DNA from: a phage
Assembly (NCBI GenBank): GCA_025823825.1
Contig: GCA_025823825.1_4720.1
DNA: 64,000 bases
Strand: one strand, 5' to 3'
Shown piece by piece: positions 1 to 36,702 of this stretch. The position numbers and the translations under genes are program-made. The notes beneath the pieces are model-generated. The model was not told the origin of the DNA. It did not search any database and saw nothing but the letters and a program-made list of their open reading frames with translations. Within the stretch, counting starts at the first letter, position 1. Every line of letters begins with the position of its first letter.

Positions 1-730
1 CGTTAATAACAGATTCTGGATTGACTAGATCGAAGAACAAGATACCGATTTCCAGCAGTACCCCGTTCTTTTCCAGACTGAGATTCTCCACATCCAGGCA
101 AAACGCAGGTTTCTCTACCGTTGAAAAATCAAAATATTCTTCGAGACGCGGCGTTGGTTCAGCAGCGAGAAACGTCTCATGAATGAACTGGGCGAATGTC
201 TTATTCATTGCTACTAAGTCAATACCCAATTTACTTAGCAGAGGTATAATTGCGGGGTCATTCTGCTGTATTACCACACACTCTTGGTTTTTGATACAAC
301 GACCAAGTGAGTAAAAAAGATGAACGATGTCTAACGGTTTGTACGGGGCCTCAAATGTTGTTCCCTGGAACGACTGAGCTAGCACTTTATGTGTTTCTTC
401 ACGATGATCTATCAGTTGGAAAATAGCACAGCGCAGATAATGCCGTAATGTTATCTCGTGAAGGTGTGATGTATCTTCCTGAAATAACGTCATGAAACCG
501 TGATACGTATAATACGCACCTCTTCGAATTTCTTCGAGGAGTTCTTTGTCCCCATTTGTTTCCTCCGATGTTATCGGTTCCATTTGATCGAGGATAGTGC
601 TGAGAAGGTCACTGCCGTGTACCTTAAACAGTTTTTCAACGTCAAGATTAGGTAATGTCGCGATTGCTGCGTACATTAATGTTTCTGCGGGATTAAGTTC
701 TTTATTGTCAATTGTGATGGTTAAAGCCAT
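1..730 (-). CDS. hypothetical protein, 3' end truncated by window edge
   Basis: Open minus-strand frame from ATG at 730..728 with GAGGT RBS, no stop before position 1; distal FCLDVENL...LEIGILFFD resembles a DnaQ-like Exo I motif (weak). Confidence 0.5.
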   Translation of the reverse strand, partial: MALTITIDNKELNPAETLMYAAIATLPNLDVEKLFKVHGSDLLSTILDQMEPITSEETNGDKELLEEIRRGAYYTYHGFMTLFQEDTSHLHEITLRHYLRCAIFQLIDHREETHKVLAQSFQGTTFEAPYKPLDIVHLFYSLGRCIKNQECVVIQQNDPAIIPLLSKLGIDLVAMNKTFAQFIHETFLAAEPTPRLEEYFDFSTVEKPAFCLDVENLSLEKNGVLLEIGILFFDLVNPESVIN

Positions 731-20716: not shown

Positions 20717-21997
20717 TCAGAAACGATTTACAGTACGTCCTGTCCACGCGCTCAGGATGTTGTTACGTTCCATCTCAGCACGACGACGTAAACCGTTTGG
20801 CGACTGCGGTGCTTGCGGCATCCCCCATCCAGCCGGTTGCATACCCATGCCCGGCCAAGCAGCGTTATTGAACATCGTACCGTTACGTTCCGCAACACGG
20901 TTCATCAGCGCATCAAACGTGCTATTACCTGCCGGTTGGTTACCACCACTTTCCCATTGATTAGGTTGGACAGGTGCGGTTTTACCTAACAGGTTATCGA
21001 TCACACTGCCTGTTGCAGCAGGACGCGGTTGCATACCTTCATGTGCGGCTGCCGATGGATTTGGCTTAACCGTCGGCTGTGGACGACTGTTCAGCGTTAC
21101 GCCCATGTTGTATTTCGCTGGCGGAATCTGACCACGATGTTGATTAATCGGTTCAAAATCCTCAACCCAGGTAACATCACAATAACCGTTCTCTTTACCG
21201 TCGTACTTATCACCAAACAGTTTGATGAGATTGTTCAGCGGTTCCATCAGCTTAGCGAAGCTGTGGATAAGACAATCGAAATACGGAGCATGGGGATCGC
21301 TTGACCCAGCGTTGTACGTTTCGCTTACTTCACCCGCGTGCGGGATAACGTACTCAACCAGGTTTCTCAGCATGTTAAGATCTTTCTTGGAAATCTCAAC
21401 ACCACACCAATACGTTTTCTTATCTTTCGTGCTGATGTGTTCTTCTTCCATGAACGGGAAAGTAACGACCGCAACGCGGGTCATCTTCTTACCCATGTAG
21501 GTTGCACCAGTACGACGAAGATAAATTTTGGACAGCGTATACGGCGTATCACGTTTCAGCCAAACGGTGACCAGTTTGCCCAGGGTCGTTAGTGTTTTAT
21601 CGCTGGCGTCCGCAAGGATGTTGAAGAACTCTTTTTGCTTCGGCCCGAAACGTTTTGCTTCTTTAGGATTGATTGCGGTTTCAACCATCCAAATCAGCAT
21701 GGAGCATAGCGTGGCATTAAAACGAACAACCATCGCGCGGCGCAGGAACTGAAGGACTTCCGATTCGCCGTTCATCACGTCTTCACTTAGCGGATGGAAC
21801 AGCACACGTTCAGCCAGCTGATTTCCGGTACGAACTTCAGAAACCGGCATCAGCAACGGCATGCTTTCCACGGTAGCGGCAACTGCAACAACTTTACCAT
21901 CCCCATCCGTAAAACGATATTCTAATTCGTGGGCGTCATTCTCAAAATAGTTAACGCTCTGTAGTGCTTTGCGATAAGCTTCGATAAGCTTCGACAT
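20717..21997 (-). CDS. hypothetical protein with Gln/Pro/Gly-rich low-complexity C-terminus
   Basis: 426-aa ORF with AAGGAAA RBS. Confidence 0.55.
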   Translation of the reverse strand: MSKLIEAYRKALQSVNYFENDAHELEYRFTDGDGKVVAVAATVESMPLLMPVSEVRTGNQLAERVLFHPLSEDVMNGESEVLQFLRRAMVVRFNATLCSMLIWMVETAINPKEAKRFGPKQKEFFNILADASDKTLTTLGKLVTVWLKRDTPYTLSKIYLRRTGATYMGKKMTRVAVVTFPFMEEEHISTKDKKTYWCGVEISKKDLNMLRNLVEYVIPHAGEVSETYNAGSSDPHAPYFDCLIHSFAKLMEPLNNLIKLFGDKYDGKENGYCDVTWVEDFEPINQHRGQIPPAKYNMGVTLNSRPQPTVKPNPSAAAHEGMQPRPAATGSVIDNLLGKTAPVQPNQWESGGNQPAGNSTFDALMNRVAERNGTMFNNAAWPGMGMQPAGWGMPQAPQSPNGLRRRAEMERNNILSAWTGRTVNRF

Positions 21998-22052: not shown

Positions 22053-23639
22053 TTAGAAGTTGCCTTTGGTAGTTACCGCATCCACCAGGTTAAACAAATC
22101 AACACTCAGCTTATACACCTCCTGCTGGCTACGGTTGAGCAGCGGGCTGTATGCGGATGGGTTGATGTTCGGCATGGTGTACGGAATCGGTGCAGAGCCG
22201 TCAACGCTGATCTTGAACTGGCTGTCCAGGAACAGGTTAATCGCGCCGCTCACCATAACCGCATTCGGGTTGTTACCCAACATGGAGGGTAGGATATTGG
22301 TAATCATGTCAGAACGCATTTGTTCAGCAGCACGGTTACAATCGTATCCTTTAATGAAAGGTACAGCGTCGGTAACCGCAACCGCCCACTGACCAGGCAT
22401 GATACCGAGTTCTGGGTGACCATGGTTGTCAGCAATAAAACGGAACGACTCCAACATGCGGTACGTCATCGCAGCAGGCATCATTGCAGCAAGCGATGAG
22501 CAATACAGCGTTGGATAATCGATCACGTCCCAGCTCTGGCTGTCGGTCGGCATCCAACCAAACTCGGTGGTTGCTGATGTACCGCGACGAGCTTCCACAT
22601 ACGGGAATAACGTTAAGACGTCACGGATATGTTCACCGAACATCCGTTTCATGTCAGCCCAACTCAGGCTACCGCTGAAAGCGAATCCTTCATCACGCAT
22701 AATCGCACCGAATACCGGATGCGCGACCAGCGGTTCTTCACGAACAGCTTGAGCGGCTTCTACGTAAATATCCTCGTTCTCTGCGCTACCTGGATGAGAC
22801 CCGCTTTCGTACGTCTGACGAATAGCCCCAACATTATCGAAGGCTTTTCTCAGATAGATGGTTGGGATGTTCGTATCGGCACTAGCTGGTTTGATTTTCT
22901 CTGTTGCGAAACACATTGCTGCTTCCACACCACGGAAAACCGGTTCCGGTTGCGGTGGGTAGGATGTACGATGAACCACGTCAGCGTAGGCGGGATCGAA
23001 CTGCTGCATTACGTTCTGCATGGCTGGGTCCATGAACTGGTTATCAAAACCACCATTGCCCACCCAACGTGCTGTCGATGCATAAGTCAGTGTATCCTGA
23101 ACACGAGTACTGAACTGAACATCGCGATTAACAGGGTCGTATGCACCGGTCAACAGGTTCGTTGCGTCCATCGGGGTTGCACGAACAATTTGCTTACCGA
23201 ACATATCTGTCGTGGTTGTTTCGGTTACCTGGATTACGTTCGTGAAGAAGAACACCAGTTCATTCGGCAGATCGATAGCACGCGTTGTAAACGCATCGAG
23301 GCTTACAGAATGGTCGGTGTATCCAGAAATGTAATGGACACGCTTGGTTCCTGGTGCAAGGGCCAAGGATTCTTCTACAGCCATCATGAAATGGAAACGA
23401 CGTGTGCCCCAACCATTCGCAATCTCCGAAACCCCCTCAGGTTCTGCAGACTGCTGCAACAAACCGGTTGCAAGCTTGTTGATTGCTGATGGTGTTGTTG
23501 CCGTACCGAACCGCGTCGTGTTAATAAAGTCTTCGATGCTACGCATGCTATCTGCGTGGAATCGTAGTGGACGACGTTGTACGTTGTTGTACGGTGCGGT
23601 TTCAACCATCAGTATTTCACGAACATTCATCGGGATCAT
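22053..23639 (-). CDS. hypothetical protein
   Basis: 528-aa ORF with AAGAGGAAA RBS. Confidence 0.55.
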   Translation of the reverse strand: MIPMNVREILMVETAPYNNVQRRPLRFHADSMRSIEDFINTTRFGTATTPSAINKLATGLLQQSAEPEGVSEIANGWGTRRFHFMMAVEESLALAPGTKRVHYISGYTDHSVSLDAFTTRAIDLPNELVFFFTNVIQVTETTTTDMFGKQIVRATPMDATNLLTGAYDPVNRDVQFSTRVQDTLTYASTARWVGNGGFDNQFMDPAMQNVMQQFDPAYADVVHRTSYPPQPEPVFRGVEAAMCFATEKIKPASADTNIPTIYLRKAFDNVGAIRQTYESGSHPGSAENEDIYVEAAQAVREEPLVAHPVFGAIMRDEGFAFSGSLSWADMKRMFGEHIRDVLTLFPYVEARRGTSATTEFGWMPTDSQSWDVIDYPTLYCSSLAAMMPAAMTYRMLESFRFIADNHGHPELGIMPGQWAVAVTDAVPFIKGYDCNRAAEQMRSDMITNILPSMLGNNPNAVMVSGAINLFLDSQFKISVDGSAPIPYTMPNINPSAYSPLLNRSQQEVYKLSVDLFNLVDAVTTKGNF

Positions 23640-23640
23640 T

Positions 23641-25229
23641 TTATTTTTTTCCTCTTAAATTTACTACGTGTTCATTTAATCGAACAACTAATTGCACAAG
23701 TTGCTGACGGATATCTGCTGGACAAAGCATCAATCCTTTACGATCAGCTGGGACTTTCTCAAGGATTTCCGGGCCTGCTGCTGAAACATCCCAGTCCCAT
23801 TCACAAAACGCATCGGCCACCATGTTAATACCGACAACCGGTAAAGTTGTACGTTCATCTTCATACATGGCGTGTGGATACAATTTATTGACAGTAATGA
23901 TCTCCTGTGGTTTTAATTGGTGGATAATCTGATAAACATCGTCGCGTTTAACCTGGATACCTACGGTCAGCGCTGCCAGTTGAGGAAAACCCCAATGGTC
24001 TAATAAGCAAGCTGCAATCGCTAACGCTTTTGCTTGATGCACGGCTTCAATCGGTGCCAGACTTCTCGCCGGAAGATGGCTATCAAGCAACCATTGTGCC
24101 AGTGCTCGGCATCCACGGTTGATTGGTTTTAACTCAACGCTGTCATCGTGCTTAGCGTACGTGTATCCGTCGTAACGTTTTGCGATACGCGCATACATGT
24201 CTTCAACTTTACCGTAAGGTGCCGTTTCGTCGACGTCGTGTAACACACGTTCCATCTGGGTAAGATACGCGATGTCAAGAATGAGTACACGCGGTGAACG
24301 TTTATCTTTCACCATCAACGCATCAATCACGCCTTGACTGTCTTCATCTTGCGCGTTCCCTCGTGGGGTTTTCTCACGAATCGGTCCGCTGAAACGTCGT
24401 TCCGTACAAAGGTTATTCACATAGCTAAAGATCAGTGTTACCAGATGCGTACAACTCACCAACACCCCATCTTTAACGACAGGCTGTACGGCTTGGTCCA
24501 AGTCGCGTACGGCGAGACGGCGGACGATGGCTTGTGAACGCAACCAGCCGGGCACTTTCTCCGTCGACATGTAATCCACGGTCATCGACAGCGTGATCTT
24601 TTTATCACCCGTCTGTGCGCGGATATAGTCTTCCAGTCGGTCGTAAGCGGCGATATCATGAATGCGTGTTTTATACATCAACGACATAGCCACTTCTTCT
24701 TTACGGACTGTCCCGTACGTTTTCCCTGCGTCAATCAGAAACTCTGCCCAAATCGGCACCATCAGACGGACATAGATCGCTAACGCTGTTAACTCAACGT
24801 AATCATTTCGTAAATAGGTTTTCTCGGGTATATCGTCCTCACCTAATGTTGTTTTCATGTCCGGTGGTAATTTTACCCAACCTGGGGTATTACACAACGC
24901 CAGAATCTCTTCATACACAACCGGTTTGTAAATCTCACCAACAGCGCGACTCAACTCCTCCATTTGTTGTTGTGGAGCAATGTAGTTATCCATCGCTTCA
25001 CGTGCTTTAACGAACCCTTCGAAGATGTCGTCAATTCGACGTGGGTTCTTTTGTTCTATCCAGGCGAGATACTTGTTAATCTCCCGCATCTGATTGCTAG
25101 CCATATCCCCATCAATCTTGATGTAACCCTGGCCTGAAAATTCCACAGTACGTCCATCACGATGTTTGATGAGATAGTGATCCAGCTTTTCTTTTCCTTG
25201 CGTCGTAATGACGGGCACTATGTGCATAA
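23641..25229 (-). CDS. hypothetical protein
   Basis: Track start 25362 lacks an RBS; ATG at 25229 (MHIVPVITT) has AGAGG RBS. Confidence 0.55.
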
Positions 25230-25431
25230 CAACCTCTTTTCGCGGTTCCCTGTTAAAACGTCTTCTGTGACGTCTACCACAAAGGTAATATAAGCGTGAA
25301 TAATTTTGGATTCCGGCTGAGTTATCGCTCAGCATGCAAGGCATCCCGCCGAAGCGAGACACCTTGCACTAACGGAAAATATTCGCGTTACCTTCTGAAT
25401 CGAAGACTCAGAATGCGATGCTAAAGCATTA

Positions 25432-26220
25432 TTAGAACGCTAAGCCATCAAAGGCTACGGACGGATCATCATCGTCATTTGCGCTTGGCGCATCCCAACG
25501 GGTATCAGGGGCCGCTGAAGCCGAACTTGATGCGTTAGAGTTACCGTTGTACTGGCCGTTACCAGCATTACGGTTACCGCCGCCGTTGTTATTGTTACGG
25601 TTATAGCTATTGTTGCCATTACTTACGCTACGGCTTTCACCGTCGAAATTGGTTGCGAGGATGCTCGGCAACACCGCACGATGAATACGTACAAATTCCA
25701 ACGCACAAAGCGGAGAAACAACCCCGATCTGTAAAGGTTGCCCAGACTCATCAACCAGAGCGTGGAAGCGCGGTGGCTTGAATACGAATTGGATGTTCGG
25801 TTTTTGGTACGCTGTTACGGCGATATATACCGAACCATCATCATTCTTACCAACCCATGTTGTACTTTCGGTAATCTGTTTCTTCTTACCTGGGTTATTG
25901 CGATCGTCAATAACCTTTTCGTTCTTCATCGCAAAGCGCTGACCTGGTTTACCCTTAGCAACCTGCTCGAGGATCGCAAGCAGGTTATAGAACGCGTATG
26001 AGCTCATGCGTGCCCAAATGCTTTCAGCGCGACCCTGCTGGTCTTTACGACCGGTGTAAACCGTGATACGCGGTTGATTCTTAGCAACGCTAATTTTCAA
26101 TGAGGGGATTGAATTACCGCCCTCAACCTTTTCGTCCGCCCACAGTTTCCAGTTGTTGTCGTCATACGCTGTAGGAATAATGTTTCCTTGTGGTTTACTG
26201 CCCGAATTCCAATTGCTCAT
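25432..26220 (-). CDS. hypothetical protein with SSB-like Asn/Gly-rich linker and acidic C-terminal tail
   Basis: C-terminus ...NGQYNGNSNASSS...SANDDDDPSVAFDGLAF resembles the disordered linker and acidic tip of single-stranded DNA-binding proteins. Confidence 0.5.
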   Translation of the reverse strand: MSNWNSGSKPQGNIIPTAYDDNNWKLWADEKVEGGNSIPSLKISVAKNQPRITVYTGRKDQQGRAESIWARMSSYAFYNLLAILEQVAKGKPGQRFAMKNEKVIDDRNNPGKKKQITESTTWVGKNDDGSVYIAVTAYQKPNIQFVFKPPRFHALVDESGQPLQIGVVSPLCALEFVRIHRAVLPSILATNFDGESRSVSNGNNSYNRNNNNGGGNRNAGNGQYNGNSNASSSASAAPDTRWDAPSANDDDDPSVAFDGLAF

Positions 26221-26293: not shown

Positions 26294-27091
26294 TCAGCGG
26301 AACATGTCCAACAGAAAACGTTTTGCGAAGGGGTCACGTAACTGGTTGACGCCAAAGCGCGTACGGTCTTCCGTTGTTAATGGATTCCACTGACTCTGTT
26401 TCGCAAGATCTAACAGCATCCTTTTTATTTTCACCGGCCCACTGTTAAACTGTACGGCTTGGTCACCGAACGTTCCCAATGTCATCTTTGTAAATGGAAG
26501 ATTCGCAACCTCTGGACGATCCCCACCAGTAAGTTTAGTCGACCACTGATGTTTTCGTTTCAAGGTTCCGGTATGGCTCTCCACCAAAATAAGTTCACCA
26601 AAACCGGTTCTTGCCAACAAGTCAGAAACATAGTGCGTGGTGATATACGATGTCTTGGTTATCGTGGGTAATTTACAATCCATCGATTCGATATTAGGGA
26701 GTCGATCTACAGACGCCATCAACCCACGATAAAGTGTAGCGAGTCCTTTTTGTTTTTCGGTGTGTGGCTCCTTATGTATAGCGTGCGGATAAACACGCTT
26801 TATTGACGCATAGGTTGGCGCATATATCCGCAAACGAATATGGGGAACGAGTTCATTCACCAGCTGCCTTAGCTGCAGTAACTCGTTTTGAAAATCCCCT
26901 GTTATCATCGATAACGGTAATTTATGTTGTTCAACGTCTTCAAAGCTTTCAACGAAATTGCGTGCTAAAGTACGCAGGTTGAACAACCAATCCATCGGTG
27001 TTTCTGGCTGTTGCTGCACGGCTGATAATGTTGCTGACGTCCCTACCGATAAAGGATAATCACCTAACGTGCGGGCGTACATATTGCTCAT
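26294..27091 (-). CDS. hypothetical protein
   Basis: ATG at 27091 (MSNMYARTLG) preceded by AAGGAG RBS; track start 27127 overlaps upstream gene. Confidence 0.5.
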   Translation of the reverse strand: MSNMYARTLGDYPLSVGTSATLSAVQQQPETPMDWLFNLRTLARNFVESFEDVEQHKLPLSMITGDFQNELLQLRQLVNELVPHIRLRIYAPTYASIKRVYPHAIHKEPHTEKQKGLATLYRGLMASVDRLPNIESMDCKLPTITKTSYITTHYVSDLLARTGFGELILVESHTGTLKRKHQWSTKLTGGDRPEVANLPFTKMTLGTFGDQAVQFNSGPVKIKRMLLDLAKQSQWNPLTTEDRTRFGVNQLRDPFAKRFLLDMFR

Positions 27092-27110
27092 ACCCCACAA
27101 CTCCTTCTTA

Positions 27111-28253
27111 TCATGGCAACGTATCAAGCCAAGCAGAAACCTTTAAGGCATCAACGTTCGGGTATTTATTACGAATGCGTTCGACCAACAAACGCTTAAC
27201 GTTGTCCTTTGTCAAGTCTCCACCTTTCTCGATAACGTTATTGACAAAACTGTTCTTTAATAGCGACTGGTTGTTCTTGGCATCCGTTTTAATTGACCAG
27301 ACAAAACCTGGATACAAAGAAGGGATAGAACGAAACGTTTTCGCCGCATCGTCTTCCTTATCGCAGCGTATTCGAATATGATCGCCCTTCTTCAATGGAG
27401 CCAATTCCCGTTCCAACACACGGACAATTTCATCTCCAACAAGACCATGCAGTTTTATCGTCTTATAGACATCTGCTTTCTTGTTCTCAACAAATTCCCA
27501 CTGGTCGTTAAACGATTCTGTTAACGTATAACGGAGATACCCCTTTGGACCTTCTTCGCCGTGCGCCAAGCGACCGAACGAACCGCCAACCATGATACGT
27601 CCTTTCTGGGATTGTAAGTGAATATGTCCGCTCACGATCCATCCCTGGGTCTTCTCCACCATTGCGTTATACGCATCGCTGCTATGAACACATGTCGCTT
27701 TTAACGCTTCTGGTGGAAGCTGATATTCGAACGCACCGTGCATCAGAATGAAGTCCGGCGATCCCTTCTCATCAATAAGTCGGTTCACGGCCGACAACGT
27801 CACATCCGGATCGTGGCTGTAGTTATCTGGAAGATAAAGCACTTTTAAACCAAAGTCTTCATCAACCATGCAGAGGTCATCGTAATAACGAACTTTCGCT
27901 CCTATCTCCATGACCTCGTTCTGTTCAACGAACCACTGACTTTGCTTCTGGTCGTGTAAATTGGTACCCTCAAGAAAGATCAACGTAATATCATGTTTTC
28001 TCGCATACCGTAACAACCAGGTACCCCAGGCACGAACAGCAACCACATCACTCGTCACAAATGTCGTAATGCGATCGAAGACATCGCCACTGAACGTAAT
28101 CACATCAAGCAGCGCAGGATCTTCTTTTGTAATGTAATAACGCAGTTGGCTAATCAGGTTTACTGTCGGTGTTTGACGATGGATAAAGTGAATATCCGAC
28201 AAATTGATTCCACGTAATACCCCAGGCGTTTTATTTCGACTGAAGTCTCGCAT
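27111..28253 (-). CDS. metallophosphoesterase, possibly SbcD/Mre11-like nuclease
   Basis: Ordered motifs SGDVFD, GTNLHD (GNHD-like), MHGAFEY, SGHIHL (GHxH). Confidence 0.6.
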   Translation of the reverse strand: MRDFSRNKTPGVLRGINLSDIHFIHRQTPTVNLISQLRYYITKEDPALLDVITFSGDVFDRITTFVTSDVVAVRAWGTWLLRYARKHDITLIFLEGTNLHDQKQSQWFVEQNEVMEIGAKVRYYDDLCMVDEDFGLKVLYLPDNYSHDPDVTLSAVNRLIDEKGSPDFILMHGAFEYQLPPEALKATCVHSSDAYNAMVEKTQGWIVSGHIHLQSQKGRIMVGGSFGRLAHGEEGPKGYLRYTLTESFNDQWEFVENKKADVYKTIKLHGLVGDEIVRVLERELAPLKKGDHIRIRCDKEDDAAKTFRSIPSLYPGFVWSIKTDAKNNQSLLKNSFVNNVIEKGGDLTKDNVKRLLVERIRNKYPNVDALKVSAWLDTLP

Positions 28254-32348: not shown

Positions 32349-34714
32349 CGTAGCGTTCAGCATGAGTCGCTACCTCATGCCCGCAGCTTTACCTGCAGCT
32401 TCCGGTGTTACCGGAATGTCCAGAATACATCTTATCCATATTCCAAATGGAACGTAGGACTTCCGCGCTGGATCTCGCTTGAGACCACGTATTCGTTGAA
32501 CGTTCTCCTGAACGGAGCTTCGCTGCTGATCGAACATTGTCATGTACGGTAGGCGTCCCCGAAGGGATTGTCATTGAAGCCGCGTACATCCGCTACCTTG
32601 TTTCTACCTTATCGGTTCCTCTTACGAGGCGTAGCGGCCTTAGCCCTTCCCAGCAATTCACGGAATCCAAGCTCTTCCTTTCGGAAGGCAGGGCCTATGA
32701 TTAAGCATCCCCGTCGCTGTTATCGACTATATCTTCATCCTCGTTGCGAGGAGTCTCCCGTTTTGGTCTGTGTTTAACAGAGCCTACTCTACTCGACATC
32801 GCGTCTTTCGATAGTCTGTGAGCACACATCTTAACGAACATTCGTGGATTCCTAAACAGGTGAACGTTCTTGTTGAGATGCTTCGCTGCGGATTATTCCC
32901 GTCCTACCTCTTTTACCCTACCCAGTTCATTACGCTGGCCCTCATCTGTGTCACCACGATGAGTTGGTGTGTAGTCCGATTACAGAAACTTCCCGTCAAT
33001 TAGAGAGTTTTAACTACGTTCCTGTTACCAGAAACCAGATCCCGACGGTATCAATAAATCAACGTAAGTTATTGATTTAATTGAAAAAACTGAAATCTGC
33101 ATTATCTTAATCTTCAGTATGGTTCGCTACTCCATACCCGTACGTCATGTACTGCTTACGTCTTTCACGTAAGAAGAGACTATATCTTTCACCCTCAGCA
33201 TTATCTGGTCGGGGCTCCCATTTCGGCGGTCAGATGACCGGTGGTTTCCCACGCCGCTTGGCCCTAACGCCCGTAAGCGATAGTCGTTGAGCGCATCTCC
33301 GTTCTGGAGACTTCGCTGCGGATTCCCCAATCCTTGCCGCTTTTACCATACCTGAATGATTAGTTCAGCCCCACGCTCTGTTCCCAGGCGTGGTTGGTGG
33401 ACAAGGCTCTAAGTAGGTTCCCGCATTAGAGAGTTCTGCGTGACAACATTTCTGCGTTACTGGGCCTAACGACCCTTTCAAGATCATCACGCTTAACCCG
33501 ATGGTGTTATCCTGCGGATCGCGTTTAACCTTGGTGATTTCAAGACATTGGTTACTGCTTCGGTCAAGTGATGGGTTTCGAACAAAGCCACACACAATCC
33601 CATCGAACGGTGTATCAGCAATAAGCTCATCGTGCAGCTCGCTCATCATTGGATGATAATTACGGACATGTTCCGCAACGAACGCACGTGCTGCTCTCGG
33701 TGAATAACCACGATGGAATAACTTGGATTGGATATGTTCTTTATTGGTTAAAGTAAATGGTGCGTATGGGAAATGCAGATGATAATAACGATGGTTCGCT
33801 GTTATCGAACTGATTACGGTACGCGTGGTGAATGGATGTAATGTACCTAATATGTTTTTACGTGTGATACCTTTCTTCTTACCAATGAACTCATCGAAAA
33901 TTGCTGCGTGGTATTGCAGTAGCTTCAATTGCACTTTCGCCATCCAGTTTTCTTTCTTTCTGGCGCTCAAAGGTGTTGTTGGGTGATAGATACTGTTCAA
34001 CGTACCAATAGCATCGATCGCACCTTCCATTTTGCTATCTGCATAACGACCGGTTGGCGTATTCTCGATAACGAACATCATGGCCGCAGGAAAGCTGATA
34101 TACTGGCTGAAGAACTTATCACGATGGATACGGATGAATTCTCGTAGCGTGTCAACTTTCTCCGTGTTCTTCGGTCCACGTAACGTAGGTCCTTTATACA
34201 AGATCTCCATTATGCGATCGAAGTTCTGTATAAAGCTATTTACGCCGCGACGTATCCCGAATACATCGAATTGCTGCTCCAGATAGTTCTTGAGTTCGAT
34301 GGGTCGTTTTACATTTGGACGGTAACTGGCATCAATGAGCCACGTCATCGTTTCAAAGCTTTTGATATTCAACTCGCTTGCCAGCACGAGATGGACCAAC
34401 GGGTTAATGAACGCATCAATTCCTTCAGGAACACGCGCCCAAACCGTCGAACGAATCTCCTGTTCTGCCGGGTAGGTCACGACCGTTTTACAGTTTGGAC
34501 ACACCGTGCCGAGTAGCTCACCACGATTGTAGAAACCACAACCACATTGTGGTGTGATATCCAACGTATCGCTGGAGTAAACACGGGTGATAAAACTGTT
34601 TAATTTCTTCTTCTCTTCGACGACTTTTGTATCGTAATCATTCAACAAAATCGGCGTAAAAGGAAGTTCTGCGAGCTGTCTATCGAAACTCACGATATCG
34701 AGCATGATGGCCAT
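32124..34714 (-). CDS. RNA polymerase beta-prime subunit, N-terminal piece, interrupted by three group I introns; predicted mRNA join 34714..33472, 33105..33093, 32716..32704, 32348..32124
   Basis: Zinc finger CGCGFYNRGELLGTVCPNC (CxC-x13-CxxC), RNPSLDR ~ [15 protein letters not shown] ~ IQLHPLVC. Unspliced ORF ends in junk without the catalytic motif; the join restores [21 protein letters not shown] in frame (1494 nt, 497 aa). Confidence 0.6.
32349..32703 (-). ncRNA. group I intron 3 (ORF-less, 355 nt, divergent P7)
   Basis: Third copy: GGUAGAAACAAGGUAGCGG, CAGCAGCGAAG, P7 5' strand GAAUA (32494..32490) with complementary 3' strand UAUUC (32427..32423), two P9-like hairpins, terminal G at 32349. 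Confidence 0.45.
32704..32716 (-). CDS. beta-prime-N micro-exon 3 (13 nt, CGACGGGGAUGCU)
   Basis: Completes F then encodes D-G-D-A; ends in U; a UAA follows in frame if unspliced. Confidence 0.45.
32717..33092 (-). ncRNA. group I intron 2 (ORF-less, 376 nt)
   Basis: Second copy of the same core: GGGUAGGGUAAAAGAGG...AAUCCGCAGCGAAG (32923..32881), CACAGACUAUCG with GACUA at 32816..32812, GAAGAUAUAGUCG (32736..32724), terminal G at 32717. Confidence 0.5.
33093..33105 (-). CDS. beta-prime-N micro-exon 2 (13 nt, AUAAUGCAGAUUU)
   Basis: With the preceding U encodes Y-N-A-D and first two bases of F; ends in U. Confidence 0.5.
33106..33471 (-). ncRNA. group I intron 1 (ORF-less, 366 nt)
   Basis: Tetrahymena-type core elements on the minus strand: GGUAUGGUAAAAGCGG...AAUCCGCAGCGAAGUC (33352..33311), P7 5' strand GACUA (33285..33281), J8/7-P7 3' strand AGAUAUAGUC (33187..33178), P9-like hairpins, terminal G at 33106. 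Confidence 0.6.
33472..34714 (-). CDS. beta-prime-N exon 1
   Basis: AGGAG RBS and ATG at 34714; exon ends ...AAA GGG U with U at 33472 as first base of the Tyr codon. Confidence 0.55.
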
Positions 34715-34806: not shown

Positions 34807-36702
34807 TTAGAACAGGTTGAATGCCCCACCCATGTTGTTAACGCCAACATTCGGACGATCGCTACGTGCGTAGATGTTACCGGAGATGTTACCCAGACCA
34901 CGAGCACGTGCTGCCATGTTACCACGAACAGCGGTACCTGCCAGATGCTGGATGTTCTCAGGACGGATGGTGAAGCCAGCATCAGCAGCAGCTTCGATCA
35001 GCGCCTGCAGTGCTAACGGATCGAAGTCGTAACGCATTGCCCAGCCGGTTTGTTCCCAGCTACCAGACAGAACACGATCGATGATTTCGTGACGAGCGAC
35101 AACACGCTGAGACATCGTCATATCGGTACGGTCGAAGCTGTCTTCCCAAGCTTCTACGGTATCCGGGTTAGTGATGTTCATCATGTACAGATCGTCCATA
35201 TCACGAATATCGTGACGGTGACCATCCTGGTGGTTGTAGTGACCCAGCGGGATACGGTTACCGGTAGCGTAGACCAGCGGTAAGCCGTATTGATATTTCT
35301 TGCTGAAGCAACCCAGGGTAACATCATCGAAGGCACGGTAGAGTGCTTTGTAACCTTCAGAGACTTCCCGAACATCAGCCTCAACATTACCCGTATAGAT
35401 CTTCTCAGCCGCCGGGATCATACGCAGCAGCCAGCTGTATTCGCCTTCTTCCGGTACGTCGATAGAAATCAGCAGGGACGGATACAGTACCTGTTGCAGG
35501 AACTTGTAAATCTGCTCATTGGTTTGAGTAGACAGATCCAGCGGTGCGGTAACTTCCGGATCCAGCACCATCGCCAGAGCACCCGGGTTATGCGGACCGA
35601 TACCACGAGCAGCGTTGCTGATTAAAGACTGCGCCCATGCCATGCCGCTGTTCAGCGTAGCGATGGTGCCAATCAGACCCAACACGAAAGTGTTCGGTGT
35701 GAACGCATCCAGCTCCAGCGGGTAAGCGCTGGTCATCACGTAACGCGGCTGGTATTGTACAGTCGGCGGTACCGGATAACCGTTAACCAGAACAGGGCCT
35801 TGGTTGAAGGTCGGGTTCTGCGGGCTGTAAGTCAGGTCAATGTAACCGGTGGTGGCGACCAGACGCTGTTGACTATCGTAATCGCTCATCGCTTGACGGA
35901 TGCGGTTAGAGATAGTTACAGTGATGTCAGAACGCACAGGGTTACCAACAATATCGCTGTCCTGCATACCGCTGGTGTTGTACTGAACGCTGCTGATTGG
36001 CTGATCGCTTGCCATCATGCCCAGGTTGAACTGCGGCAGACCCAGTTTATCACCGAGACGGATTTCGATTGCGGTCTGGATTGCGTTATCTGCAGCAGAC
36101 AGCAGGGTGGTCGCCAGATGCGCAGATTCAGCGGTGATTTCATTGGTCACCACAGCCAGACCAGCGATACGAGCAGTACCATTAGACTTACCGCCAATAG
36201 CTGCATACATTGCCGCCATGACTTCGTTGATGAACGTACCGTTCAGGTTATCAACCCAGGTACGCGGTACCAGAATGTTACCATGCGGACCTTGTTCTTC
36301 ACGACGCGGCAGCGGAGCCAAACCGGCAACCAGCGGAAGCACATAACCGAAGAAGTGGTTATGATCACCAACTTTTGCACCACTCATAACGACCAGGGTC
36401 GGATACGGTACGCTGTACTGGTTCGGGTCAACCGCAACAAAGATGAAGTCGTCTTTGAACTGGGTATCTTCCAGATATTTCTCCATCAGACGACGGAGAT
36501 TCAGTACCTGCTCGGAGCCGGTATTACGGCTGATACGACGGCTCAGTGTACGGTTGATCGTACGCATCGTATGAGTTACTTTAGGACGGTCGGCAAAATC
36601 TGCAGCGGTTTCCAGCGCCTCATCAGCACGTTGTGCGGTGCGGGTTTCAGCTGCACGAATTTCTACATTATCGTTACCGTTATTACGTACGTCTAAGCCC
36701 AT
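34807..36702 (-). CDS. chmA: candidate chimallin (phage-nucleus shell protein)
   Basis: 631-aa ORF with AAGAGGAA RBS directly upstream of beta-prime-N, as I recall for phiKZ gp54-gp55; size matches described chimallins; promoter-like motif 66 nt upstream. No sequence comparison possible here. Confidence 0.45.
   Translation of the reverse strand: MGLDVRNNGNDNVEIRAAETRTAQRADEALETAADFADRPKVTHTMRTINRTLSRRISRNTGSEQVLNLRRLMEKYLEDTQFKDDFIFVAVDPNQYSVPYPTLVVMSGAKVGDHNHFFGYVLPLVAGLAPLPRREEQGPHGNILVPRTWVDNLNGTFINEVMAAMYAAIGGKSNGTARIAGLAVVTNEITAESAHLATTLLSAADNAIQTAIEIRLGDKLGLPQFNLGMMASDQPISSVQYNTSGMQDSDIVGNPVRSDITVTISNRIRQAMSDYDSQQRLVATTGYIDLTYSPQNPTFNQGPVLVNGYPVPPTVQYQPRYVMTSAYPLELDAFTPNTFVLGLIGTIATLNSGMAWAQSLISNAARGIGPHNPGALAMVLDPEVTAPLDLSTQTNEQIYKFLQQVLYPSLLISIDVPEEGEYSWLLRMIPAAEKIYTGNVEADVREVSEGYKALYRAFDDVTLGCFSKKYQYGLPLVYATGNRIPLGHYNHQDGHRHDIRDMDDLYMMNITNPDTVEAWEDSFDRTDMTMSQRVVARHEIIDRVLSGSWEQTGWAMRYDFDPLALQALIEAAADAGFTIRPENIQHLAGTAVRGNMAARARGLGNISGNIYARSDRPNVGVNNMGGAFNLF

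Follow-up and report, generated by a model that had tools for sequence, protein, structure and literature searches.

The proteins closest to the one considered here are those named Chimallin C (ChmC), a name given to gp176 of phage Goslar, gp61 of PhiPA3, and gp67 of phiKZ (Enustun et al., NAR 2024, PMC11077065), and the gene in question is the open reading frame (ORF) at 25432-26220 of a 64,000-nucleotide stretch of phage DNA (GenBank assembly GCA_025823825.1, contig GCA_025823825.1_4720.1), the whole of which is referred to below as the window. [quoted passage not shown] The C-terminal disordered region of ChmC, made up of ~40 N/G-rich residues followed by ~15 S/D/E-rich residues, is required for the formation of condensates (PMC11077065). 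Among non-structural proteins ChmC ranks second in abundance, and in infected cells it cross-links to the mRNAs of the phage (PMC11077065). In Goslar, ChmC localises to the phage nucleus and forms puncta at its shell, with dCas13d knock-down of gp176 shown to reduce plaquing to ~4%, stunt the phage nucleus, trap mRNAs inside it, and lower phage protein levels (PMC11077065). Phage titre is rescued neither by the Rmut variant, altered in an arginine patch, nor by the deltaC variant, with the nucleus seen to grow in the presence of Goslar ChmC-deltaC while phage are not produced (PMC11077065). Additionally, gp67 of phiKZ binds directly to the nuclear import factor Imp1/PicA (gp69), on account of which it has been named Imp6 (bioRxiv 10.1101/2024.03.27.586873), and phiKZ orf67 is essential both by transposon sequencing (Tn-seq) and in an antisense-oligomer (ASO) screen.

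The ORF at 25432-26220 is very probably chmC, also known as imp6, with this published role. It runs on the minus strand from an ATG at 26220 to a stop codon at 25432-25434, with stop codons throughout the plus strand of the same interval, and its product is identical in sequence to Goslar gp176, with nothing of substance differing between the two. A 6-kb stretch around chmC shares 98.8% DNA identity with Escherichia phage vB_EcoM_Goslar, the window DNA around the gene differing by ~1–4% from the Goslar record, in which Goslar_00176 is annotated as a ‘hypothetical protein’. The window protein is matched by phrog_3284 (E = 1e-35) and by PhiPA3 gp61 (BLASTP E = 2e-15, domain identity 28%), and weaker homologues, with 27–34% identity over residues ~20–200, are found by tblastn in 67 other jumbo phages, the matches including PHIKZ067 of phiKZ, PhiPA3 gp61, and gp123 of 201phi2-1. 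The ChmC/Imp6 proteins of Goslar, PhiPA3, phiKZ, and 201phi2-1 share with the window protein the same fold, tail architecture, gene neighbourhood, and phage family. On its sequence, the window is that of a Goslar-like nucleus-forming jumbo phage of the Chimalliviridae, the formation of a nucleus following from the presence of a gene for the shell protein ChmA. As chmC is already known and characterised in Goslar, the gene itself adds nothing new; what the analysis adds concerns the tail of its product.

A further ChmC, P0001 (263 aa), with 99% identity to the window protein, is encoded on a 241-kb contig of an NCBI assembly of Salmonella enterica serovar Schwarzengrund. The presence of a Goslar-like phage genome in the assembly of a Salmonella isolate may represent a carrier state, a contaminant, or a wider host range.

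Predicted domain and disordered linker

The AlphaFold2 model of the window ChmC, a monomer computed from a 9-sequence alignment, has block-mean predicted local distance difference test (pLDDT) values of 80–96 over residues 21–180, and predicts a doubled beta-beta-beta-beta-alpha unit. The first unit comprises strands at residues 24–26, 39–45, 48–58, and 64–70 followed by a helix at 73–88, and the second comprises strands at 94–104, 112–124, 130–136, and 139–145 followed by a helix at 164–186. [quoted passage not shown] Against BFVD the top matches are uncharacterised jumbo-phage proteins (Klebsiella phages Eowyn and Miami, and Pseudomonas phage EL), with E values down to 1e-15, and these are orthologues of ChmC.

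At the level of sequence, a Pfam scan of ChmC returns zero families at E <= 1, Whirly (PF08536), PUR (PF04845), and SSB (PF00436) included, and a sequence search of the PDB yields nothing beyond spurious matches of the first 28 residues to WD40 proteins (E = 0.2–0.6). The likeness of the modelled domain to the Whirly and PUR families is thus structural only and is not present at the sequence level. The Whirly/PUR/MRP proteins (T. brucei MRP1/MRP2, human PURA, and plant Whirly) resemble ChmC in their repeated fold of beta-sheet plus helix, in using the face of the sheet to bind single-stranded nucleic acid, and in their tetrameric assemblies, whereas ChmC has no sequence-level match to them and acts in a viral setting. 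An SSB-like acidic tip is not known from these families.

Three further BFVD proteins of 123–176 aa, all uncharacterised, match the ChmC model with Foldseek probabilities of 0.97–1.0, namely E1A1Y1 of Aeromonas phage phiAS5, A0A6B9WJZ1 of Escherichia phage ukendt, and W5QUN3 of Bacillus phage BPS10C, all from phages outside the set of ChmC homologues found here. Judging from such models, phages may encode more single-strand binders of the Whirly/PUR type than their annotation reveals.

The basic character of the domain is retained in part at the positions implicated in RNA binding, with K42, R51, and R71 of the window protein aligning with R35, R44, and R63 of PhiPA3 ChmC, residues of the Rmut RNA-binding mutant. 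Residues 1–192 carry a net charge of +8, the linker a net charge of 0, and the last 15 residues a net charge of -5.

The pLDDT of the model falls below 50 for residues 189–261, and the tail of ChmC is therefore predicted to be disordered. Residues 193–247 consist of 25% Asn, 18% Ser, 15% Gly, and 13% Ala, with Asn and Gly together accounting for 22 of the 55 residues against a background of 10.5% in the 91 ORFs of at least 100 aa in the window (binomial p = 1.1e-8), which makes this the most N/G-rich 55-aa stretch of the window. The description of the C-terminal region as Asn/Gly-rich, made previously from the sequence alone, thereby stands, the label being slightly incomplete given that Ser and Ala are enriched as well. 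The linker contains a conserved motif, ...YNRNNNNGGGNR..., and residues G201, N208, G212, G213, and R216 are invariant in alignment A1. A search for tandem repeats in the DNA encoding the tail reveals only a weak 6-bp pattern, which argues that the tail is not a recent repeat expansion. An aromatic-basic ‘sticker’, [YW][NQ][RK], was considered as a family feature of the linker and rejected, as it is found in only 43 of 157 members. The runner-up N/G-rich 55-aa stretches of the window (16–17 of 55 residues) include the C-terminal end of ChmA (34807-36702, residues ~575–631) and residues ~350–405 of a gp70-like protein (20717-21997); ChmA and the gp70 homologue are both nucleus-associated proteins.

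The acidic tip across the ChmC family

With a profile built from the domain alone, a search of 1.84 billion representative proteins gives a ChmC family of 1187 representative clusters at E <= 1e-3, 237 of them at E <= 1e-30. A word-indexed homologue search gave 8 matches only, such that an exhaustive hidden Markov model search is needed to see the family. Inspection of the C-termini of 157 family members reveals an ending of the form [DE][ILMVF]P[FWMYLIV] in 108, a stricter ending of the form [DE][DE][ILMVF]P[FWM] in 88, and exactly DDDIPF in 17. Counting back from the C-terminus, Phe occupies position -7 in 33 members, and Asp positions -6, -5, and -4 in 77, 99, and 118 respectively; position -3 is Ile (70), Leu (43), or Phe (23), position -2 is Pro (124), and position -1 is Phe (97), Trp (22), or Met (21), with an aromatic residue or Met at this last position in 140. 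The resulting consensus is F-D-D-D-[ILF]-P-[FWM]. The motif is anchored at the C-terminus, and across the family the share of basic residues is 0.4% in the final nine positions compared with 9.6% in the linker. Furthermore, among 1076 ORFs of related loci the tip motif is confined to the ORFs of ChmC, which account for 15 of 15 matches.

The hexapeptide DDDIPF is given in PMC5872125 as the C-terminal docking peptide of E. coli SSB, the sequence of which was confirmed against PDB entries 1eqq and 4mz9. The likeness extends beyond the hexapeptide in P0056, a family member with two domains, which ends PPMDFDDSIPF compared with PPMDFDDDIPF in E. coli SSB. What underlies the comparison of ChmC with SSB is therefore a real feature of the family, and a selected one. 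In the literature searched, nothing relevant ties SSB or DDDIPF to ChmC, to the phage nucleus, or to jumbo phages, and SSB is unmentioned in the paper describing ChmC (PMC11077065); a family-wide tip of the SSB C-terminal (SSB-Ct) type thus seems to be undescribed.

Five metagenomic members of 404–466 aa (P0018, P0056, P0092, P0100, and P0111) carry two tandem ChmC domains per chain, with one linker and one tip after the pair. In four of these proteins the tips are of the D-x-D-I-P-F type and very close to the tails of gammaproteobacterial SSBs, for example ...QPPMDFDDSIPF and ...EPPLDFDTDIPF, and the fifth, P0111, ends ...VENDIF.

The window protein itself ends ...SANDDDDPSVAFDGLAF, exactly as quoted in the sequence-only reading, with the final residues DDDDPSVAFDGLAF providing an acidic run and a terminal Phe without the Φ-P-F ending (Φ, hydrophobic) common in the family. 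The tips of the Goslar clade follow the pattern D(4-9)-[PA]-x-x-A-F-[DQ]-G-L-[AP]-[FL], which persists between members with only 64% domain identity and linkers of unequal length, and they are the most divergent form in the family. The tips of phiKZ ChmC (FDEDMPSF) and PhiPA3 ChmC (FDDEIPNF) have one extra residue ahead of the terminal Phe. The likeness to the linker and acidic tip of SSB that had been seen in the window protein is hence partly upheld: the disorder, the N/G-rich linker, and the acidic tip with its terminal Phe are all present, the Φ-P-F ending is missing from the Goslar tip, and the likeness is far stronger in the relatives of this protein than in the protein itself.

Bacterial SSB (E. 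coli SSB, PF00436) and ChmC are both tetrameric single-strand binders in which a long, disordered stretch enriched in Gly and in Asn or Gln leads to an acidic tip whose last residue is aromatic, and both form condensates that depend on the tail (for SSB, bioRxiv 10.1101/2022.01.17.476650). In contrast to SSB, which has an OB fold, ChmC has a Whirly/PUR fold and favours RNA over DNA, with no detectable homology between the two domains; the Goslar tip also lacks the I-P-F ending of SSB, whereas many relatives of ChmC end exactly in DDDIPF. T4 gp32 and T7 gp2.5 likewise have a basic core and an acidic tail with a hydrophobic or aromatic end, the tail serving to recruit replication partners. ChmC follows the same logic of a basic nucleic-acid-binding core joined to an acidic tail, while T4 gp32 and T7 gp2.5 differ from ChmC in having OB folds and in binding ssDNA at replication forks.

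Function of ChmC and of its tip

ChmC is made early and in large amounts. In the mechanism favoured here, the basic beta-sheet faces of its tetramers would hold nascent mRNA of the phage within and at the shell of chimallin, and the N/G-rich tails would supply multivalent weak contacts that give rise to condensates or puncta. ChmC is required for the export of mRNA from the phage nucleus, which we infer to proceed by the chaperoning of mRNA through or at the shell, as well as for a later step in virion production, and in phiKZ it also contacts Imp1/PicA. On this account ChmC is essential, connecting the transcription that takes place within the phage nucleus with the translation that takes place outside. 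Several points weigh against such an account. The protein used to measure RNA binding, tetramer formation, and condensates was PhiPA3 ChmC, whose domain is only 28% identical, and not that of Goslar, and of the six basic residues mutated in PhiPA3 only three align with basic residues in the window ChmC (K42, R51, and R71). The export mechanism derives from knock-down phenotypes, which could be indirect, and as the deltaC variant removes the linker and the tip together, it is not proven that the late defect reflects the loss of condensates. Additionally, the interaction with Imp1 suggests a second or different role.

The tip allows two further readings, both tentative and both compatible with the published role. 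It is possible, though not probable, that ChmC is a functional analogue of bacterial SSB without an OB fold, acting as a hub in which the tip is a docking peptide of the SSB-Ct type that recruits partners, in or at the phage nucleus, to single-stranded RNA or DNA coated with ChmC; these could be enzymes of phage replication, repair, or transcription, or SSB-interacting proteins imported from the host, and the Goslar tip (DDDDPSVAFDGLAF) would be a divergent variant co-evolved with its partner. Such a hub would extend the RNA-chaperone role already published without ruling it out. The frequency of the [DE]ΦPΦ and exact DDDIPF endings, the near identity of the P0056 tail to that of E. coli SSB, the C-terminal anchoring of the motif with its near exclusion of basic residues and its restriction to ChmC among the ORFs of related loci, and the tetramer, ssDNA binding, G/N/Q-rich linker, and tail-dependent condensates common to ChmC and SSB all favour such a hub, as does the ability of Goslar ChmC-deltaC to allow growth of the nucleus but not production of phage. 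The apparent lack of another SSB in Goslar points the same way. No feature is annotated as an ssDNA-binding protein within positions 1-234,499 of the 237,307 of the Goslar record, a phmmer search of 1025 Goslar ORFs with E. coli SSB and T4 gp32 gave best E values of 0.1–0.8, with a sensitivity too low for absence to be shown, and the core-genome paper of the Chimalliviridae mentions neither SSB nor ssDNA. The window ChmC itself has no significant match to E. coli SSB in phmmer (E = 2.3). As a divergent OB-fold protein would escape such searches, this evidence is weak, although room is left for ChmC to serve in part as the single-strand-binding hub of the phage. The window protein, however, lacks a Φ-P-F ending, the tips of phiKZ and PhiPA3 ChmC are imperfect, ChmC favours RNA and cross-links to mRNAs in cells, the tip has no known partner, and the likeness could be convergent and reflect a generic acidic autoinhibitory tail. 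Simple mimicry of the host SSB was also considered for Goslar and is judged unlikely, because the host SSB ends in DDDIPF and the Goslar tip is different. An ‘electronegative cluster’, in which the tip acts only in cis or between subunits, is the other tentative reading: by folding back on the basic face that binds RNA, the tip would keep non-specific binding down and adjust condensate formation, with no separate partner. In E. coli SSB, T4 gp32, and T7 gp2.5 the acidic tail and DNA are competitors for one binding surface, which accords with this, and the charges of the ChmC domain (+8) and tip (-5) fit. An electronegative-cluster role was proposed for the S/D/E-rich end of ChmC in the paper describing it (PMC11077065). 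Pure electrostatics, however, leaves the Pro at position -2 and the aromatic residue or Met at position -1 unexplained, and the AlphaFold2 monomer shows no confident docking of the tail on the domain, with a tail pLDDT of 30–36 throughout. The docking reading bears on the deltaC phenotype, since the constructs remove linker and tip together and the defect late in infection could thus reflect a lost docking interaction rather than lost condensates. Were ChmC a hub, it could stand in for the SSB apparently missing from these phages, and the separate contribution of the tip could bear on the partners of ChmC and on how nucleus-forming phages manage without a recognisable SSB.

Two alternatives concern the protein as a whole. 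We consider it unlikely that the main role of ChmC is that of Imp6, a structural subunit of the Imp1/PicA import complex at the shell, with RNA binding secondary, though such a role would not rule out the published one. The co-purification of phiKZ gp67 with Imp1 as a stable complex of ~120 kDa (bioRxiv 10.1101/2024.03.27.586873), the synteny of chmC and imp1 in every locus examined, and the puncta of Goslar ChmC at the shell are in keeping with this role, but imp6 was not recovered in genetic selections for import-defective phages (bioRxiv 10.1101/2024.03.27.586873), knock-down in Goslar leads to the retention of mRNA in the nucleus, and ChmC is far more abundant than a stoichiometric pore subunit would need to be. 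An OB-fold protein of the SSB type acting as a scaffold for replication or recombination, as put forward in the sequence-only reading, is very improbable and is rejected on fold. The resemblance of the linker and tip to those of SSB, the proximity of chmC to the gene of an SbcD-like nuclease, and the binding of ssDNA by an orthologue would suit such a scaffold, yet the N-terminal part has no OB fold by Pfam, AlphaFold2, or Foldseek, RNA is preferred and mRNA is bound in vivo (PMC11077065), and the flanking genes serve mostly in transcription and nuclear transport. That reading had been tied to an OB fold and to ssDNA binding, of which the fold is Whirly/PUR instead and the binding is shown for the orthologue PhiPA3 gp61 (Kd 184 nM, PMC11077065); in place of a scaffold, the published role is the binding and export of phage mRNA, together with association with Imp1/PicA. 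The earlier reading was thus right in seeing a single-strand binder with an SSB-style tail, wrong as to fold, and probably wrong as to process.

Gene neighbourhood and surrounding sequence

The features of the chmC region are collected in Table 1. [quoted passage not shown] Within it the imp1/picA homologue lies two genes downstream of chmC, and chmA lies 8.6 kb from chmC. The start annotated in Goslar for the gp66-like gene falls inside the longer ORF of the window, and phiKZ gp68 appears as a ‘sigma factor’ in the table of the ASO screen.

Table 1. Positions of chmC, the parts of its product, and nearby features in the window
Feature	Positions	Strand	Basis or remarks
chmC / imp6 coding sequence	25432..26220	minus	262 aa plus stop; Goslar gp176 (Goslar_00176, QBO63969.1), 100% protein identity
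Predicted Whirly/PUR-like nucleic-acid-binding domain, residues ~20-188	25657..26163	minus	AlphaFold2 and Foldseek
Disordered linker, Asn/Ser/Gly/Ala-rich, residues 189-247	25480..25656	minus	pLDDT, composition
Acidic tip NDDDDPSVAFDGLAF, residues 248-262	25435..25479	minus	Tip form of the Goslar clade; the tip seen across the family is SSB-Ct-like
Highly structured intergenic RNA (204 nt) separating chmC from the gp68-like gene	25228..25431	minus	Minimum free energy (MFE); link to the chmC system uncertain
SbcD-like nuclease, phiKZ gp65 homologue	27111..28253	minus	phrog_100 (E 2e-40), synteny; first gene of the conserved block
phiKZ gp66 homologue	26294..27127	minus	BLASTP E 6e-24, phrog_3229; directly upstream of chmC
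phiKZ gp68 homologue, nvRNAP subunit	23641..25227	minus	BLASTP E 7e-34, phrog_3209; directly downstream of chmC
phiKZ gp69 (Imp1/PicA) homologue, nuclear import factor	22053..23639	minus	BLASTP E 2e-14, phrog_3141
Chimallin ChmA, major phage nuclear shell protein, 631 aa	34807..36702	minus	phrog_4795 ‘nuclear shell protein’ (E 1e-51); Goslar_00189

The same block is carried by the 200-kb Bacillus phage vB_BspM_AgentSmith (locus L005; MW749006, 127493-140059), with an ORF on the opposite strand between gp66 and ChmC. The AgentSmith ChmC ends ...DSFDTDVPM, and its linker is short and not N/G-rich. This suggests that the gene set associated with the nucleus occurs also in a phage that infects Gram-positive bacteria.

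The spacer of 204 nt that separates chmC from the gp68-like gene has an MFE of -74.5 kcal/mol compared with -51.6 +/- 4.3 kcal/mol for shuffled sequences (z = -5.4), and folds into five or six hairpins, one of which has a perfect 14-bp stem capped by a UUCG tetraloop and lacks a following U-tract. The spacer does not differ from that of Goslar, has a 38-bp insertion in locus L008, and could be a processing site, a terminator for the nvRNAP, or a small RNA. A promoter and terminator scan around chmC found no sigma-70-like promoter and no minus-strand terminator, and an Rfam scan of the whole window returned nothing at the gathering threshold.

Elsewhere in the window, the nvRNAP beta' gene shows a pattern of interruption different from that of Goslar over 32717-33492 (minus strand; Goslar 168216-169668). 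The window lacks the NUMOD1/HNH homing-endonuclease gene Goslar_00186, with the junction at 32718/32720, and the group I intron adjoining its site is kept (RF00028, 46.9 bits, E = 2.5e-10, just below the gathering score of 50). An insertion of ~368 bp at 33106-33473, not present in Goslar, contains a second group I intron-like match (32 bits, E = 7e-6), and the upstream nvRNAP exon ORF (33365-34714) matches the RNA polymerase profile to residue 414 only, beyond which it reads into the insertion.

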